From an uncultured bacterium (GTDB lineage Bacteria > Fidelibacterota > Marinisomatia > Marinisomatales > UBA1611): DNA of 64,000 nucleotides. Shown here piece by piece: positions 20,100-27,424 of the stretch. Under the pieces are notes generated by a model. The model ran no database searches and was not told the DNA's origin. It saw nothing but the letters and a program-made list of their open reading frames with translations. The stretch lies in assembly GCA_943788175.1 (NCBI GenBank), contig CALSPG010000001.1, positions 224,001 to 288,000 of the forward strand, read 5' to 3'. A program made the position numbers and the translations under genes. Positions within the stretch are counted from its first letter, which is position 1, and every line of letters starts with the position of its first letter.

Positions 20100-21422
20100 T
20101 TAGTCTAAACCAATAATTGTTGGTTTATTTACGGGCCCAGTTAGTTTTAAGACAATCACAGGTCCTTCTCTGTTTAAATTTTTATCATTCTCTATTTCCC
20201 ATTCTCTTATAATATCTCTTACGCCATATGATATCGGATTAATTCTAATTTCAGTATCAAATAAATCCAATGAACTAAAATCTTTTTTTCTAGTATCAAA
20301 TGAAAATTGCCCACTAATATTAATTTTTAAAAATGGACTATCAAATAATGCTTCAATTATTCCAAATTCATTATCATAAAATCGAAAATTAAAATCTGCT
20401 CTTCTAATACGTAATAAACCATTCCTGGCACCAAGTTCAAGCATTAAGAAGTTTATAGTCTCATCGTTAGTAATAGACGGTGGTATTTTAAACTCAAGGT
20501 TTTTGATTGAAAAATCACCACTGCCATTCTGAAAATTTGGATAGCCTTCCGTATCTAAAACTTGGAAAGATAAATTATTTATATTTAGGATTATATCGTT
20601 TATTTTGAAATTAGTTTGTTCGAAAATATCATTATTAGGGATGGCTGTTACTGACAATCCTTTAAGTGTGAATTTTCCATATTTTTGAAAATACTCAATA
20701 CTAGAACTTTTTGGAGATAAACCAATATTAATATCTGAAAGTAGCGACTGTTCAATTTCATTTATATTAAATCTAAAAGACCAGTTTGTACTGTCTTTAG
20801 GAAAATTATCAGATTCTTTGTTGGTTATTTTTTTCGTTTCCCAGTTTAAAGAAATATATTTTTCTTGTTTTTTGTGGCTTGAAGTTGTTCGCGCATCAAT
20901 ACTAATTGGTAATGACATAGTGTAGTTCCATTCATTATTGCTAAATGGATATTTGTCGGGTCTTATCAAAGACTCGATAACTAAGTCATTATAATTTTTT
21001 GGATATTTTTCATTTTTTTGGAAATAAGCTTCGGTTGCTTTTTCTAAAACTTCAAAAGCATCCATCGGTGTTTCATACCGTTTATCTGAAAGATCAGTTA
21101 ATATTAAGTTGTAAAAATTCGCTAATTTGTAGTTGGTTATTAATTCAAAATGATCAAGCAATAAGCCAGGTCCATTAATCACTATTCCTATTGATTCATC
21201 ATTTATATTTTTTATTGCTATATCATCAAAACCAAATTTTAAAGATTGTATTGAGAGTTGTGCATTCTCAAGGCTGTCTTTTGATATATTAGTAGCTATT
21301 TTAAATTTATTAAGTTGAAAATATAATTGTTCTAATGATGCTGTCGCATCAATATAATTTTGGCTTTTTATACTTTGCCCTATAATTAAGACAATAAAAA
21401 TGCATTTTGTTAAAATTTTCAT
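20100..21422 (-). CDS. hypothetical exported beta-rich protein (AsmA/GspN-like C-terminus)
   Basis: ATG 21422 MKILTKCIFIVLIIG signal-like; C-terminal VLKLTGPVNKPTI. Confidence 0.55.
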   Translation of the reverse strand: MKILTKCIFIVLIIGQSIKSQNYIDATASLEQLYFQLNKFKIATNISKDSLENAQLSIQSLKFGFDDIAIKNINDESIGIVINGPGLLLDHFELITNYKLANFYNLILTDLSDKRYETPMDAFEVLEKATEAYFQKNEKYPKNYNDLVIESLIRPDKYPFSNNEWNYTMSLPISIDARTTSSHKKQEKYISLNWETKKITNKESDNFPKDSTNWSFRFNINEIEQSLLSDINIGLSPKSSSIEYFQKYGKFTLKGLSVTAIPNNDIFEQTNFKINDIILNINNLSFQVLDTEGYPNFQNGSGDFSIKNLEFKIPPSITNDETINFLMLELGARNGLLRIRRADFNFRFYDNEFGIIEALFDSPFLKINISGQFSFDTRKKDFSSLDLFDTEIRINPISYGVRDIIREWEIENDKNLNREGPVIVLKLTGPVNKPTIIGLD

Positions 21423-21501
21423 ATTTTTATTAATTTGTTGTATACATAATTTATGTAGTGAGTCAATTTGATAAACTATTTTTTTCGAATACTTTAATTT
21501 T

Positions 21502-21831
21502 ATGAAAAAACGACAAAACATTGTGTTCTCTACGGATGAAAATTTTTTTCATGATAAAAATGAATCTATAGAACCTATTAATGTGGCTGCAAATGAACAA
21601 AATCTGAAAATCAGTTTAAAAAGGCTACCTGGTAATAGGATATTAACGATTATTAATGGTTTAAAAGGAGACGCCTTAAGCTTTAATGCTTTATCAAAAG
21701 ATCTTAAAAAGGCTTGTGGTGTCGGCGGATCGGTAAAAAATAGACAAATCTTAATCCAAGGAAATCATAGGGAAAAAATAATAAAAATTTTAGATGAAAG
21801 AGGCTTTAAAGTAAAGGCCAGTGGAGGTTAA
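21502..21831 (+). CDS. yciH: translation initiation factor SUI1/eIF1 homologue
   Basis: LTIINGL, LKKACGVGGSVK, ILIQGNHREKI, GFKVKASGG. Confidence 0.9.
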   Translation: MKKRQNIVFSTDENFFHDKNESIEPINVAANEQNLKISLKRLPGNRILTIINGLKGDALSFNALSKDLKKACGVGGSVKNRQILIQGNHREKIIKILDERGFKVKASGG

Positions 21832-21840
21832 ATTTATAAC

Positions 21841-23013
21841 ATGAAATTTTTTAATTTAATTACATTTATAGTTTTAAGTGTCATGTCATTTTCTTCGTGC
21901 GATAAATCGTTAAAACTATCAAAAATAAAAATGGTGCTAACTGGGAGTGTTCATGGCCAGTTAGATCCTTGTGGCTGAAAGAAAAATCCTCTAGGCGGTC
22001 TGTCTAGAAAATTAATGGTATTAAAAGATATGCGTAAGAATGGTGAAAGCCCTCTAGTTCTTGATGCCGGCGATATGTTCTTTAGTAAAACTAGCATTAA
22101 CATTAATAATATTAAATCAGAGCAGCATAGGTGCGAAACTATGTTAAAAGGCTACGAGAAAATTGGCATTGACGCTCAAAATGTTGGTAAGTATGAACTT
22201 TTAGCTGGGTTATTATATCTGAAAAAAATGGAGAAAAAGTTCAGTAATATTCCATTTATTTCTGCAAATATAAAAAGTGCTGCGACAGGCGAGTTATTAT
22301 TTAAGCCATACCGTGTCGTAAGTAAAGATGGTCTTAACATAGGTGTTTTGGGTTTAACTAATATGGTTCCTGATACGATGCGCTCTGTTGTCATGGATGA
22401 CTACATAAATACAGGAATTAAATACATTAAAGAATTGAAAAATAAAGTTGACCTTATTGTTTTGCTTGTTAATGCAGATAGAACTTCCCAGGCTTCTTTA
22501 TCAAAACATTTTAGCGATGCGGATTTTATTTTTACAAGCGGTAGTACTCATAGAACTAGCTCATCAATGACTCAAAATAAGAATGGTCCTTTTTTATATT
22601 CTAATGGAAAACAAGGTAAATACCTATCGATAATTGATCTTGAGATTAAAAATGTCAAGGGACCCATTGCTGATCTTTCAGCTCCAGAACAAAAAGTAAA
22701 ACAACTTAATAATAGGCTGAAAAGATTGCAGAAAAAAGATCCAAATAGTTCTCTTGAAAAAATTTATGCTGGTAAAGATAATATCTTAAACCTAATCAAA
22801 CGCTATAAAAACGACCTTAAAACAGCAGAAACTGCTATTGAAAATGCTTCAAATAAAATGAGATACACTAGTTTCGCGTTAAATAGAAAAATAAAAGATG
22901 ACCCTGAAATGTTAACAATGGTTAATCTTGCTGTCGAAAAATGTAAATCGTTAGAATTGAATAATAATAGTTTTGAAAAAAGTAATTCTCACGGGCACAA
23001 CCATAGCCATTAA
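21841..23013 (+). CDS. UshA/5'-nucleotidase-like lipoprotein selenoprotein (Sec46, C-G-U motif), 390 aa
   Basis: ATG 21841, lipoprotein signal (...MSFSSC), TGSVHGQLDPCG-TGA(21976)-KKNPLGGLSRK in frame with ORF 22015 (VLDAGD, PFISANI, IGVLGLT, GKQGKYL); SECIS-like hairpin follows the TGA. Confidence 0.88.
21990..22008 (+). promoter_or_regulatory. bacterial SECIS element
   Basis: TCTAGGC-GGTCT-GTCTAGA: 7-bp stem (one G-U) with a G-initiated loop, starting after an 11-nt spacer from the in-frame TGA; GGUCUG matches the apical sequence of the E. coli fdhF SECIS. Confidence 0.8.
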
Positions 23014-23057: not shown

Positions 23058-23543
23058 ATGAACTATTCTAACTCGATCCACCAAGTAGGTATCTTCATAT
23101 TTATATCTTTAATTTTTAGTATTTCTACTAATTTTTTCCGATCTGATTCTATTGATTATATCTCAAAAGGATTTGATAAAGTTGAATCTTTAGATGATTT
23201 AAATTTAAATAGTGAAGAGGGTATTAAAGAGGTTAGTTTAAAAATTGCTCAGGATTTGTTCAAAAAGGAGACACTTTTTATTGATGCTAGAGCTAAAGAA
23301 TATTACCTTGAGGGACATATCCCTGGTGCAATTTGTTTTGATGATTTTGATTCTCTTTCAAATGAAATTGATAATAGGATCCAAAATAATGAATTTTTTG
23401 TAGTTTACTGTAGTGACGATGACTGTGGTTCAAGCGAAGAACTTTCATATCAGTTGCTTGACGAGGGCTTTACAAGTATTTATTTATTTCGAGGCGGTTG
23501 GAAGCTGTGGATAGATAATAAAATGCCTATTGAAAAACCATGA
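23058..23543 (+). CDS. membrane-anchored rhodanese-like domain protein
   Basis: N-terminal TM; LFIDARAKEYYLEGHIPGA, VVYCSDDDCGSS active-site loop, FRGGWKLW. Confidence 0.9.
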   Translation: MNYSNSIHQVGIFIFISLIFSISTNFFRSDSIDYISKGFDKVESLDDLNLNSEEGIKEVSLKIAQDLFKKETLFIDARAKEYYLEGHIPGAICFDDFDSLSNEIDNRIQNNEFFVVYCSDDDCGSSEELSYQLLDEGFTSIYLFRGGWKLWIDNKMPIEKP

Positions 23544-23991
23544 ATTACTTAAAAAGTTATTCTATATTAATATTAAGAATTATTGTTGGCTCGGTTTTCT
23601 TATGGGCTAGTCTAAGCAAGATCATAGATCCTTCAAAGTTTGCTAGAGAAATTTCAAATTATCATGTTATGCCATTTGGTTTGGAGAATACGTTGCTATC
23701 TTTTTACCATGGTTAGAGTTTTTTATTGGCTCTGCACTCATTCTTGGAATTATGGTTGATGGTTCGGTAATCATATGTGCATCTTTATTAATTATGTTTA
23801 ATTTGCTTGTAGCTCAAGCAATGGTTCGAGGTTTTAACATAGAGTGTGGATGTGGCTTAAAAGAGGGTGAGCTAGTTGGTTTTCAAAAGCTATTTGAAAA
23901 CTTTACCTTTCTAGGATTCTGTGTTTTGATTTATTTTAGAAAAAATAAATTTTTGGAAATATTTCCAAAAACAGAATTGTCTGATAAATAA
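23540..23991 (+). CDS. MauE/DoxX family membrane protein, frameshift near 23690
   Basis: ATGA overlap with the rhodanese; LRIIVGSVFLWASLSKIIDP, then VAIFLPWLE and RGFNIECGCG in the second frame. Confidence 0.85.
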
Positions 23992-24013: not shown

Positions 24014-24086
24014 GCGAGAGTAGCTCAGCTGGTAGAGCATCACCTTGCCAACGTGGATGTCGCGAGTTCGAATCTCGTCTCTCGCT
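24014..24086 (+). tRNA. tRNA-Gly (GCC), CCA not encoded
   Basis: GCGAGAG/CTCTCGC acceptor stem, TAGCTCAGCTGGTAGAGC D arm, TTGCCAA anticodon loop, GTTCGAATC T loop, U discriminator. Confidence 0.92.
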
Positions 24087-24092
24087 CGCGAT

Positions 24093-24129
24093 AATAGCCT
24101 TACCTGATTTTTTCATGTAAGGCTATTTT
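24093..24129 (+). terminator. intrinsic terminator after tRNA-Gly
   Basis: AATAGCCTTAC...GTAAGGCTATT inverted repeat ending in a short T run. Confidence 0.65.
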
Positions 24130-24326
24130 GATTACAGTTAAGTATTTGTTATCTATTTTTTTGATTTTTATACTTTTCGTATTGATGATATGGATTATTT
24201 AGGTAAATTATTCTAAGCTTTCTTTGCTATCTATGTGTTTTAGTTAACATTAGCTTGTCCTAATCAACTATGTATTACATCGTGTATAGCATCTGTGCTC
24301 TTAAAATATTATAGGTTATTAACCAT

Positions 24327-25061
24327 TTGAAGATAATATATATTATAATTTTTTCTTTTTTAGGGAATTGCTTGTTTTCTCAAACGTGTTCTCTTGATGG
24401 TAAGAGTGTTGTCCCCGTCAGCTCAACAGAGATAGTTAATAATGAATCCTTAGCTCTTTACAGGTGCTCTAATGGTCACCAGATGTGGTTAGCCAATCCT
24501 GAAACTAAGGTTAGCAATGAATCTATTAATTGAATCTATTGGTTCAGATAATAAGATCTATTGCTCCCATAAAATAGGCAGGTAGCTAAAGTATAAGGTT
24601 AGTGATTCAGAATTGCGAGTTTCTAACCCTGACAGTTTCTAAAGGCTTTTCTAAGCAAAGCTATTGATTCTCAAAATATAAATACCAAAACTATTATCTG
24701 ATAACTTAAATGTGGCTCCTAAAAATAAAAATGTTGATTCTCTCAGGTTTTACCGCTGTTAAAAAAAGAGAGACTATGTCTAAAAAGGAATCTCAGAGAT
24801 TCAAAATTTTCAAGTTCTTTAAATATTCAAAAATTTGGGCTTGAAACACTTTTGCACAAAAAAATTGAAAGTGACAGGCAGTTTTCTGAGAAACTTGATA
24901 ATGAAAAGTCTGAACTACTCCACTTGATGTATACTCAAAAAAAGTTATTTGATAAAATAGATGATAATAGATTTTCTTTTAAAAAATACCCTATTTTTTC
25001 ATATTCCAACATGTTGTATATTGCTATATCTATTGCATTTACATCGTATTTAATTTTTTAA
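24327..25061 (+). pseudogene. fragmented gene for an exported protein with an N-terminal Cys/His motif and a C-terminal TM anchor
   Basis: Signal peptide plus CSLDG...YRCSNGH fragment (24327..24533), coding-like but broken middle, and C-terminal hydrophobic fragment (24852..25061). Confidence 0.45.
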
Positions 25062-25122
25062 ATTTTAATAATGGCTCCTCCTGGAGCAATTTTTTATATT
25101 TAGACATATAATATCAATTCAT

Positions 25123-26750
25123 ATGTCACAATTTAATAAAAATACTTTTTTGTTTTTTCTTTCTCTCCTATTTGTGTTTACAAATTTATATGCTGTTAAT
25201 AAAATTTCTGTTTCAGGGATAGTGGAAGACGTGAATGGCGTGTTGCTTTCAGACGTGTTAATAACTTTAAGTAGGCAAAACAACAGCGCTGTTTCAAATC
25301 GATTCGGTGAGTTTGACCTTGGGCGTATTTCTTCCCAAACGATACAATGTATGTAATGTGTATAGCTGGTTTTCAAAAAAAAGAATTCATGCCTTCATAA
25401 CTAGTATGAAAATAAAGCTATTTCCTAAATCTATTATTCAAGAAAAAATAAATAACGTAAGAAATGGCCAGACGCTGATTATTCCGCCTGGTATTCATTT
25501 TCTTTATCCGGATTTTAATGTGGATAGTACTTTTGGTCTAATTATTAGTAACAAATCAAACGTTACAATCCAAGGATCCGAAAATTCAGAGATAAGATTG
25601 TTGAAAAAGAACGCGGATATTTTTCGTATTTTTAAATCAAATAATATTAATATAAAAAATCTAATTATTAGTTACGATGATTTAGATAAAAGGACAAAGA
25701 ATTTTAATATTTCTAGAAGTCAAGCTGTTGATTTTCCTGATGCTTTAAACTTGGCGAAAAATCATGTATGGTGAAAACTCGGTTTTTAAATATGACGGTA
25801 GTCTTCACCATACAAAAGGTTTTAAAGAACCTTTTATTGAACATCATTTAGCGAATGTCGTCAATATCGTGAATTCAACAAATATAACTTTCGATAGCGT
25901 AACTTTTAGTGCTCATGGGAAAATATGCCTAGCCGGACAAAACTCACGAAATATTTCTATTAATAATTCTGTATTAAATGATGGTATTTATGGAACAGTA
26001 TTAAAAAATTGTCAAAACGTTAGCATTTCAACAATCTCTTATTATCGGATAATGCAGAGTTATATTATTACAATAATAGTACATTGAATTACGTTGATAA
26101 TAAAATTAAAATTTTAGGGTACCATGTTCCAGAACTTATTTTTGTCGAAGGTGGTTCTATAGAGATGCTAGATGAAACTATTATTCCACCACCAAAACCC
26201 ACTTATCTTAGCTCTGAAAGTTTTAAAATGAGTAAGAAAGAAATTACGTTTGATCAATATGACTCTTTTTGTATGGCTACAGATAAGGGTTTGCCCGATG
26301 ACAGTGAGTGGGGCCGTGGGACTAGGCCTGTTATAAACATATCTTATGATGATGCTGAATTGTATTGCAAATGGTTAAGTGACCTTACGGGAAAGAAGTT
26401 CAGGCTACCCAATGTTACTGAATGGGAATTTGCTGCTAGAGGTGGTTTAAAAGGCGGTGATGATTATGCGTATAGCGGCAATAGTTTGTTGGAGCCAGTA
26501 GCTTGGTGTAAATACAATACAAATGGAATGACAGAGCCGGTTGGTTTAAAAATTCCCAATGAACTAGGGTTGTTTGATATGTCTGGAAATGTATTTGAAT
26601 ATTGTAGTTCAACAAATGACAGCATGATTGTTCTGAAAGGTGGATCTTGGGCAAATAGTGGAGTTGGTTGTAGAGTTGCTGACGAAGTTGTAAGCAGTAT
26701 ACACCATTGGGATGATAATATTGGCTTTCAGAATAGTTCAAGGAGACTAG
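25123..26750 (+). CDS. secreted multidomain protein: carboxypeptidase-regulatory-like + beta-helix + FGE/SUMF1 domain; at least 4 frameshifts
   Basis: VSGIVEDVNG..SNRFGEF; ISNKSNVTIQG / IVNSTNITF beta-helix rungs; EITFDQY, RPVINISYDDA, RLPNVTEWEFAARGG, NELGLFDMSGNVFE, KGGSW; removing one T near 26727 gives the canonical IGFRIV ending, stop at 26748-26750. Confidence 0.7.
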
Positions 26751-26752
26751 GC

Positions 26753-27424
26753 ATTAGAAATCTAATTATAATTGTTCTAATTAAGCTTTTGTTATTAATT
26801 GATTGTCTTCAAGCAAATCTTCCATTAGGATTTGTATACCTTGATTCAATTATCCCAACAGTAAAAATTGATTTAAAGTACTTCGGTAAAGAGAATTTTA
26901 CAGGTACTAATATTAATGGATATGATTCAAATAGGTGTATTATATCAAAAGACGCTGCTTTTGCATTAAAAAATGTACAAAGTGATTTAGGTCACTTTAA
27001 CTATGGTTTGAAGGTTTTTGACGCATATAGGCCACAAAGAGCAGTTGACCATTTTGTAAAATGGGCTAGAAATAATAATCAAAAAATGAAAAGTGTTCAT
27101 TATCCAAATGTGAATAAGAAAAATTTATTTAAGGAAGGATATATTGCTTCTAAGTCAGGTCATTCAAGGGGTAGCACGGTAGATTTAACTATAATTGATT
27201 TTGAAACAGGGTTAGAACTAGATATGGGTACATGTTACGATTTTTTTGGTGAAGAATCATGGATCACATTTGAGAATATCAATGTAGTTCAAAAACAAAA
27301 CCGCCTACTTCTTCAATCGGTTATGAAAAAATATGGTTTTAAGCCTTTAAAGGCCGAATGGTGGCATTTTACGTTACATATTGAGCCTTTTCCCAATAAA
27401 TATTTTAATTTTAAGATTATTTAA
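26753..27424 (+). CDS. ddpX: D-Ala-D-Ala dipeptidase (M15/VanX family), exported; start codon uncertain
   Basis: DLKYF..ENFTG, LKVFDAYRP, SGHSRGSTVDLT, EWWHF; hydrophobic signal; AGGAG 7 nt before the in-frame ATT at 26753. Confidence 0.85.
   Translation: MRNLIIIVLIKLLLLIDCLQANLPLGFVYLDSIIPTVKIDLKYFGKENFTGTNINGYDSNRCIISKDAAFALKNVQSDLGHFNYGLKVFDAYRPQRAVDHFVKWARNNNQKMKSVHYPNVNKKNLFKEGYIASKSGHSRGSTVDLTIIDFETGLELDMGTCYDFFGEESWITFENINVVQKQNRLLLQSVMKKYGFKPLKAEWWHFTLHIEPFPNKYFNFKII

Follow-up and report, generated by a model that had tools for sequence, protein, structure and literature searches.

The DNA analysed here (the window) is a stretch of 64,000 nucleotides from an uncultured bacterium of the order Marinisomatales, which corresponds to positions 224,001 to 288,000 of contig CALSPG010000001.1, and the gene under study lies at 21841-23013 of this window. 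On the forward strand, a frame of 390 sense codons runs from ATG 21841 to TAA 23011-23013. Its sole internal stop, the TGA at 21976-21978, stands within TGSVHGQLDPCG*KKNPLGGLSRK (the asterisk marks the TGA). The best explanation of this gene, to which we give a probability of about 0.9, is that it encodes a selenoprotein of 390 residues belonging to the UshA-like CxU or PCGU family, in which the UGA is decoded as selenocysteine (Sec, U); the function of the protein is graded separately below.

A preliminary description of this DNA had read the frame from ATG 21841, not from 22015, without a frameshift, and had placed in it a single TGA within a C-G-U motif, followed by an 11-nt spacer and the hairpin TCTAGGC-GGTCT-GTCTAGA. 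The sequence bears this out in every element: the frame has 390 codons, and TGA, spacer and hairpin lie at the positions given for them.

The list of open reading frames (ORFs) under translation table 11 gives only 22015-23013 for this gene. In the public protein sets it is mostly represented by pieces of 320-350 aa which start 3' of the TGA, some of these fragments being named 2',3'-cyclic-nucleotide 2'-phosphodiesterase. In standard gene calls the selenoprotein loses its signal peptide together with its active site. In addition, ten full-length database proteins print Trp (W) at the Sec codon. These reach 98% identity with the window protein and originate from contigs of 1-3 kb; since they are otherwise near-identical sequences on short metagenome contigs, the W is probably and most simply a product of code-4 translation, as judged from the proteins alone.

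Conservation of the TGA codon

Homologs were searched for in 41 related genomes, comprising the window's own genome and members of its genus, family and order. From this search 20 loci were fetched, and a further set of 80 loci was taken from one genome per species (GTDB representatives); the two sets share genomes, and their counts are not additive. The 41 genomes gave 35 matches at E <= 2.8e-59, 34 of which contain exactly one in-frame TGA. Two of these 34 have an extra TAA near an end, and the remaining match, from genome G035, is without a TGA. In all 20 fetched loci the TGA lies inside D-P-C-G-*-K, and P-C-G-TGA is found in 80 of the 80 species-representative loci (a first pattern recovered 75, and the remaining 5 were spotted by eye before a second pattern picked them up as well). 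The column of the alignment that corresponds to the Sec codon, which the preliminary description had suggested examining, therefore holds TGA or, once, the Cys codon TGT, and never a non-conserved residue.

The single Cys form constitutes a natural control. G035 is a genome of 1.1 Mb from the same order, is 99% complete, and has TGT at the Sec codon (D-C-G-C). In the same gene the codons GGA-GGA-TTG replace GGC-GGT-CTG and no hairpin is present, and neither selA nor selD was found over the cut-off in this 99%-complete genome.

The letters at the codon itself are supported by public data. Contigs from all four public runs considered, which belong to four studies (two apparently DNA and two RNA libraries), span the Sec codon, and no variant at 21976-22008 is among the differences listed for the four runs (nearby polymorphisms are listed, and 101 weaker ones lie outside the list). 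Thus, within the listed differences, the public contigs show no alternative base at 21976-21978. The contigs from the RNA libraries (X15 and X16) span the gene, though contigs as such cannot show transcription.

Second copies of the gene occur in three relatives (G009:C27:9037-10071, G014:C206:4577-5638 and G019:C87:650-1687), with 41-44% identity to the window protein and one in-frame TGA each.

The selenocysteine machinery

The genome from which the window derives (2.27 Mb in 12 contigs, 92% complete) has the components needed for Sec insertion, in agreement with the earlier expectation that this organism keeps the Sec machinery. In detail, selA was found with 467 bits, the adjoining selB with 316 bits and selD with 396 bits, all above their curated cut-offs, and a tRNA-Sec with 57.3 bits (gathering score 47), for which ARAGORN gives the anticodon TCA. 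Among the 41 related genomes selA is above the cut-off in 38, which shows that the Sec trait is the rule in the order; of the three genomes without it one is G035, and the other two are only 60% and 64% complete.

The selD gene of the window's genome (G000:C7:396580-397506, L009) itself carries an in-frame TGA, in the context G-A-G-*-A-C-K. Selenophosphate synthetase is thus a selenoprotein here, and its downstream hairpins are unlike the GGUCU element described below.

The SECIS hairpin

The element that follows the TGA resembles a bacterial Sec insertion sequence (SECIS). The stem TCTAGGC/GTCTAGA comprises 7 bp including one G-U pair, and the fold has an energy of -8.2 kcal/mol. For bacterial SECIS elements, 16-37 nt between the UGA and the apical loop have been described (PMC10778597). 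In the window this distance is 18 nt, and the loop GGUCU contains the G expected of such an element. The likeness to the fdhF SECIS in spacing and in the GGUCUG apex, which had been noted before, was confirmed on E. coli K-12 fdhF: in both genes an in-frame hairpin lies directly 3' of the UGA and GGUCUG follows after 18 nt.

The codons for Gly52-Gly53-Leu54 read GGC-GGT-CTG in 80 of 80 loci (73 distinct 45-mers), and those for Pro50 vary over the same loci (CCA 32, CCT 31, CCC 15, CCG 2). Stem pair 18-30, which joins two synonymous third positions, is paired in all 80 loci by different base pairs (GC 46, AU 19, UA 8, GU 6, UG 1). In the 20-locus alignment 88.6% of the stem cells pair, as compared to 24-49% in slid registers, and the covariation score was reached by none of 500 shuffles. 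Pair 15-33, at the outer end of the stem, forms in only 39 of the 80 loci, suggesting that the conserved stem consists of 5-6 bp. Taken as a comparison of sequences, the invariant synonymous sites and the covariation go beyond what the peptide demands and indicate that the hairpin is under selection at the RNA level.

Decoding of codon 46 as Sec, directed by an fdhF-like in-frame SECIS, is thus strongly supported by sequence comparison. In this mechanism SelB, charged with the Sec-tRNA(UCA), would bind the in-frame hairpin by its GGUCU loop, and the UGA at 21976-21978 would be read as Sec. As the apex and the spacing of the SECIS equal those of fdhF, Sec insertion into this protein may be within the reach of E. 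coli with no re-engineering, which would make the biochemistry of the protein directly testable.

Protein family and domain architecture

The best NCBIfam match of the read-through protein is NF041198 (UshA_like_PCGU, UshA-like (seleno)protein), with an E-value of 7.2e-63 and 212.9 bits over positions 3-387 of the 519 profile positions. There is also a weak match to SoxB (57 bits). With Pfam no family was found at E <= 0.01, including Metallophos and the 5'-nucleotidase C-terminal domain.

A family 'COG0737, UshA-like, CxU' has been listed in the selenoproteome of the Global Ocean Sampling data with 76 Sec and 92 Cys sequences (PMC2398784), where it is among the few major families that are not homologous to thiol oxidoreductases (PMC2398784). 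In the corresponding lists of two reviews the UshA-like CxU family appears with COG0737 (2022) and with NF041198 (2026). We take the family of 2008 and NF041198 to be the same, from the shared name and the CxU motif. The statement of the preliminary description that UshA-like selenoproteins are reported and functionally uncharacterised agrees with these lists, in which the family has stood since 2008 with the motif CxU and without a function. In the library of papers that was searched, nothing was found on the function of the family, on a haem-less form or on an operon with rhodanese and MauE genes, although supplementary tables may list these sequences.

Some members are considerably longer than the window protein. 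The long forms L115-L118 (Myxococcota and unclassified) have about 500 aa and four C-terminal CxxCH motifs, and carry P-C-G-TGA-P-K-N-P and the GGC-GGUCU-G found also in the window gene. L118 (305.2 bits) and L116 (300.1 bits) exceed the cut-off of NF041198 with matches along the entire profile, and L118 matches Pfam Cytochrome_C554 at E 2.3e-14. The window match ends at profile position 387 and its translation contains no CxxCH, the tetrahaem part (about 388-519) being missing. The window protein thus has the P-C-G-U motif, the position of Sec after motif I and the SECIS (GGC GGUCU G) in common with the NF041198 family, but differs from the long forms in lacking a c554-like tetrahaem domain and in having a His-rich tail. 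The gene belongs to an already catalogued selenoprotein family, of which it is a shorter, haem-less form from Marinimicrobia.

An AlphaFold2 model was built from 18 orthologues (an alignment of 18 rows, 17 of them full-length), and reached a mean pLDDT of 86.7 and a pTM of 0.83, with low confidence for residues 18-23, for residues 45-48 of the Sec loop and for the tail. Searched with Foldseek, the model is closest to the E. coli 5'-nucleotidase UshA (1oie; E 1.1e-18, TMq 0.61), followed by CD73 and 2',3'-cyclic phosphodiesterases; the family profile matches the UshA sequence itself at E 1.9e-16. Residues 280-371 are modelled as helices and one strand, and the substrate-binding C-terminal domain of UshA is not present there. 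According to this model the window protein is an UshA N-terminal metallophosphoesterase-domain fold to which a helical region and a His-rich tail are added. It shares with UshA the modelled fold of the N-terminal domain and, probably, the periplasmic location, and differs from it in having GKYE for GNHE, in lacking the 5'-nucleotidase C-terminal domain and in having gained the Cys-Gly-Sec loop.

The residues which bind the metal ions in UshA are known. The G-N-H-E-F of UshA aligns with G-K-Y-E-L, i.e. the GNHE motif is lost; within the family the position of its Asn is taken by K, H, S, Y, D, G or A and that of its His by Y or F. Judged by eye, S/N-V-H/R stands in motif I where D-x-H would be expected, and the phosphoesterase His positions further on are N211 and S235. 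Among these motifs, near-invariance is confined to the G-D of motif II (D78). The invariant residues are Cys20, Q40, D42-P-C-G-U-K47 (18 of 18 rows), N49, G52-G-L and R56. Tails with a cluster of the H-x-G-H-x-H type occur in 10 of the 17 full-length rows. Eight of them end in the cluster, and in L020 and L023 it stands just before a short basic extension.

Cys20 follows a hydrophobic N-terminus and is invariant in all 18 aligned orthologues, and it is visible in 20 of 20 loci. The residue before it is S, A, N or T, and the Cys form of G035 is without this Cys. The selenoprotein is probably exported and lipid-anchored at Cys20, so that the lipoprotein signal proposed earlier is probably real, as far as this conservation in 18 of 18 orthologues can tell.

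A second UshA-like match in the window's own genome (C7, a frame of 639 aa) looked degenerate and was not used as a reference.

Alternative explanations of the TGA

Several observations weigh against the selenoprotein interpretation. The score of 212.9 bits is below the curated cut-off of NF041198, which is 275; this is accounted for by the absence of the tetrahaem C-terminal part. The folding energy of the hairpin (z -1.09) is no better than chance, 27 of 200 shuffles folding equally well. The genuine fdhF SECIS of E. coli does no better (z +0.32, with 122 of 200 shuffles as good), and folding energy is therefore not discriminating for such short elements. No SECIS family was found in an Rfam scan of 21700-22300 at E <= 10, which returned two chance matches only. 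The peptide KKNPLGGLSR after the UGA is strongly conserved, which explains part of the nucleotide conservation. The predicted stem of the window lacks a bulged U, whereas in fdhF a U in the 5' strand of the upper stem is left unpaired. This unpaired U matters for the binding of SelB. Moreover, the fdhF upper stem is embedded in a longer lower stem, whereas the window has a plain stem of 7 bp. Finally, the related genomes are kin, and the counts given above overstate their independence.

There are two other ways to account for the TGA. It could be a true stop, a sequencing error or the lesion of a pseudogene, the gene starting at 22015 and the upstream frame representing a separate small ORF or noise. 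This would be in line with table-11 calling, which yields 22015-23013, and with the database entries, most of which have 320-350 aa and begin past the TGA. However, conservation of the 45 upstream codons with the signal peptide, Cys20 and QxDPCG extends over the order and reaches other phyla. The TGA is in frame at every locus of both sets (20 of 20 and 80 of 80), no alternative letter is listed for the contigs of four runs, and a Cys codon replaces the TGA in the one near-complete genome searched that has no selA or selD over the cut-off; we consider this explanation to have practically no chance of being correct. The same is true of the suggestion that every TGA codon of the organism is translated, as Trp under genetic code 4 or as Gly under code 25, to which the W printed at the Sec position of ten full-length database proteins might point. 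The 47 ORFs of at least 150 aa in the window end with TAA in 29 cases, with TAG in 9 and with TGA in 9, and dense long table-11 ORFs tile the window. Furthermore, the selenoprotein gene is the only one of the read-through candidates in the window that gains a conserved N-terminal domain, a dedicated tRNA-Sec and selA, selB and selD are present, and a conserved SECIS follows the codon. A global reassignment of TGA was rejected from the stop-codon usage, as TGA terminates 9 of the 47 long ORFs.

With these alternatives set aside, the gene is best explained as a selenoprotein gene. The selenoprotein of 390 aa with the motif Cys44-Gly-Sec46, as it had been put forward in the preliminary description, is supported by the machinery, the conservation of the TGA, the SECIS and the G035 control taken together, and its probable place in the envelope by the invariant Cys20.

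Operon neighbourhood

The coordinates of the gene, its elements and its neighbours are given in Table 1.

Table 1. Coordinates of the selenoprotein gene, its elements and the adjoining genes in the window
Feature	Positions	Strand	Evidence
SUI1/YciH-type translation factor gene	21502..21831	+	Pfam SUI1 E 2e-17; adjoins the gene in 18/20 loci
Full selenoprotein gene, UshA-like PCGU family	21841..23013	+	390 codons and TAA; NF041198 match, AlphaFold2/Foldseek
Signal peptide ending at the probable lipidation Cys20 (codon 21898-21900)	21841..21900	+	Hydrophobic N-terminus, then invariant Cys
Cys44 (TGT), Gly45 (GGC), Sec46 (TGA): CxU motif inside D42-P-C-G-U-K47	21970..21978	+	Invariant in orthologues
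11-nt spacer AAGAAAAATCC from UGA to SECIS stem	21979..21989	+	Length fixed in all aligned loci
SECIS hairpin; stem 21990-21996/22002-22008, apical loop GGUCU 21997-22001	21990..22008	+	Fold and covariation
His-rich C-terminal tail HGHNHSH	22990..23010	+	Translation, alignment
Membrane-anchored rhodanese-like protein, Cx4C	23058..23543	+	Pfam Rhodanese E 6.7e-15; adjoins the gene in 18/20 loci
MauE/DoxX-family membrane protein, C-G-C-G loop; 1-base frameshift near 23691	23540..23991	+	Pfam MauE on both pieces

The order SUI1, PCGU, rhodanese, MauE is found in 16 of the 20 loci. As to the exceptions, the contigs of L025, L028 and L038 break off downstream of the selenoprotein gene or inside the rhodanese gene, and L035 is without a SUI1 match. 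The rhodanese-like protein starts with a hydrophobic helix and contains the invariant Y-C-x3-D-C-G-S-S-E; its best NCBIfam match is NF041203 (rhodanese-related (seleno)protein) with 50.5 bits, under the cut-off of 115. In the MauE-like protein a conserved C-G-C-G loop lies between hydrophobic segments, and an intact orthologue matches Pfam MauE at E 4.7e-25 and DoxX at E 1e-6.

In the 41 genomes a MauE-like gene was found in 29 and an orthologue of the selenoprotein in 32, and the two agree in 36 (28 with both, 8 with neither). Three of the five disagreements involve contig ends.

The MauE gene is split in the window, and all four public runs have one extra A behind 23691/23692. As a single intact ORF the gene is present in 15 relatives; the frameshift probably reflects either a mistake of the assembly or a lesion specific to this strain.

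Membrane redox modules of the DoxX/MauE and rhodanese kind include the mycobacterial DoxX-SseA-SodA complex and MauE/MauD in the maturation of methylamine dehydrogenase. Here, a MauE/DoxX-family gene likewise adjoins a gene for a rhodanese domain, but paired cysteines are present in both proteins (CGC and Cx4C) and a probable Sec lipoprotein is encoded with them.

Neither of the two long forms whose surroundings were inspected, L116 and L118, showed the operon of SUI1, PCGU, rhodanese and MauE genes. No rhodanese or MauE gene was found near them, the neighbours being ABC_transp_aux, DUF4340, TsaD, RrnaAD and PP2C. In both cases the long form follows an ABC_transp_aux (GldG-like) and a DUF4340 gene with overlapping or abutting stops and starts, and the genes for tsaD and an rRNA adenine dimethylase (RrnaAD) are located downstream.

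Functional interpretation

As the GNHE motif of the phosphoesterases is lost, the D-P-C44-G-U46-K loop is taken as the catalytic centre. We tentatively propose, at clearly less than even odds, that Cys44-Gly-Sec46 forms an envelope redox centre within a relay for thiols, sulfane sulfur or selenium. In such a relay the invariant and flexible loop would cycle between the selenol/thiol and the selenenylsulfide state. The centre would be connected with the four c-type haems in the long forms, and in the Marinimicrobia form with the presumably co-transcribed, periplasm-facing Cx4C rhodanese-like and CGC MauE/DoxX proteins. Electrons, sulfane sulfur or selenium would then pass from the Cys44/Sec46 centre to the haems or to the partner proteins.

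A more specific version of this proposal is that the haem-less form, the rhodanese-like protein and the MauE/DoxX protein make up an undescribed three-part envelope selenosulfide relay which replaces the tetrahaem domain and connects an extracytoplasmic substrate containing sulfur or selenium with the quinone pool of the membrane. In this full form the idea is rather unlikely. If it were true, however, a three-part selenosulfide relay would operate in one of the most abundant lineages of the dark ocean.

A number of points speak against the redox relay. The proposal is built from neighbourhood and motifs alone, and the two long forms examined have different neighbours. G035 (99% complete) and G038 (92% complete) have a gene of the selenoprotein family and no detectable MauE-like gene. 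Within the AlphaFold2 model, confidence is lowest in the Sec loop, with a pLDDT of <50 at 45-48. In addition, the His-rich tail fits a role in metal binding equally well.

Instead of forming a free selenenylsulfide couple, Sec46 and Cys44 might serve, together with the surviving Asp78/His38, as ligands of a metal centre, as Sec does in [NiFeSe] hydrogenase and formate dehydrogenase, with the His tail delivering or storing the metal. The CGU loop comes right after the site of phosphoesterase motif I, the GD motif with D78 hardly varies, and the long forms keep more His and Asp residues at the motifs (D-V-H-G, S-H and G-H-G in L116, by eye). The C-terminal cluster of the H-x-G-H-x-H type in 10 of 17 full-length rows and the fusion with haems, which suits a metallo-redox enzyme, point in the same direction. 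Nevertheless, the Asn and His of GNHE are replaced, His38 is an Arg in several orthologues, the His positions of motifs IV and V are Asn and Ser (by eye), and the tail is absent from 7 of the 17 full-length rows. We consider a metal centre of this kind only slightly less likely than the redox relay. Very unlikely, in turn, is a protein that still works as an UshA-like periplasmic nucleotidase or phosphodiesterase and is merely modulated by Sec. Its best fold matches are UshA, CD73 and 2',3'-cyclic phosphodiesterases, and one database source gives truncated copies the name 2',3'-cyclic-nucleotide 2'-phosphodiesterase. Yet the protein has neither a Pfam Metallophos nor a 5'-nucleotidase C-terminal domain at E <= 0.01, GKYE stands in place of GNHE, helices replace the substrate-binding C-terminal domain of UshA, and relatives carry a cytochrome domain instead.

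For the UshA-like CxU family as a whole, the lost phosphoesterase motif, the fusion of the long forms with four haems and the rhodanese-like and MauE/DoxX partners of the short form narrow the options towards redox chemistry in the envelope.

Other features of the locus

Upstream of SUI1, on the opposite strand, the window contains an ORF of 473 aa (20100-21521, minus strand) without a Pfam match at E <= 0.001, which is found in this place in 13 of the 20 loci. Downstream of the operon, a tRNA-Gly(GCC) is located at 24014-24087 and is followed by about 1.2 kb (24100-25300) holding only ORFs of <90 aa. Further downstream, an ORF of 446 aa (26084-27424) combines an FGE-sulfatase domain (sulfatase-modifying-factor-like) with a Peptidase_M15 domain (D-Ala-D-Ala dipeptidase).

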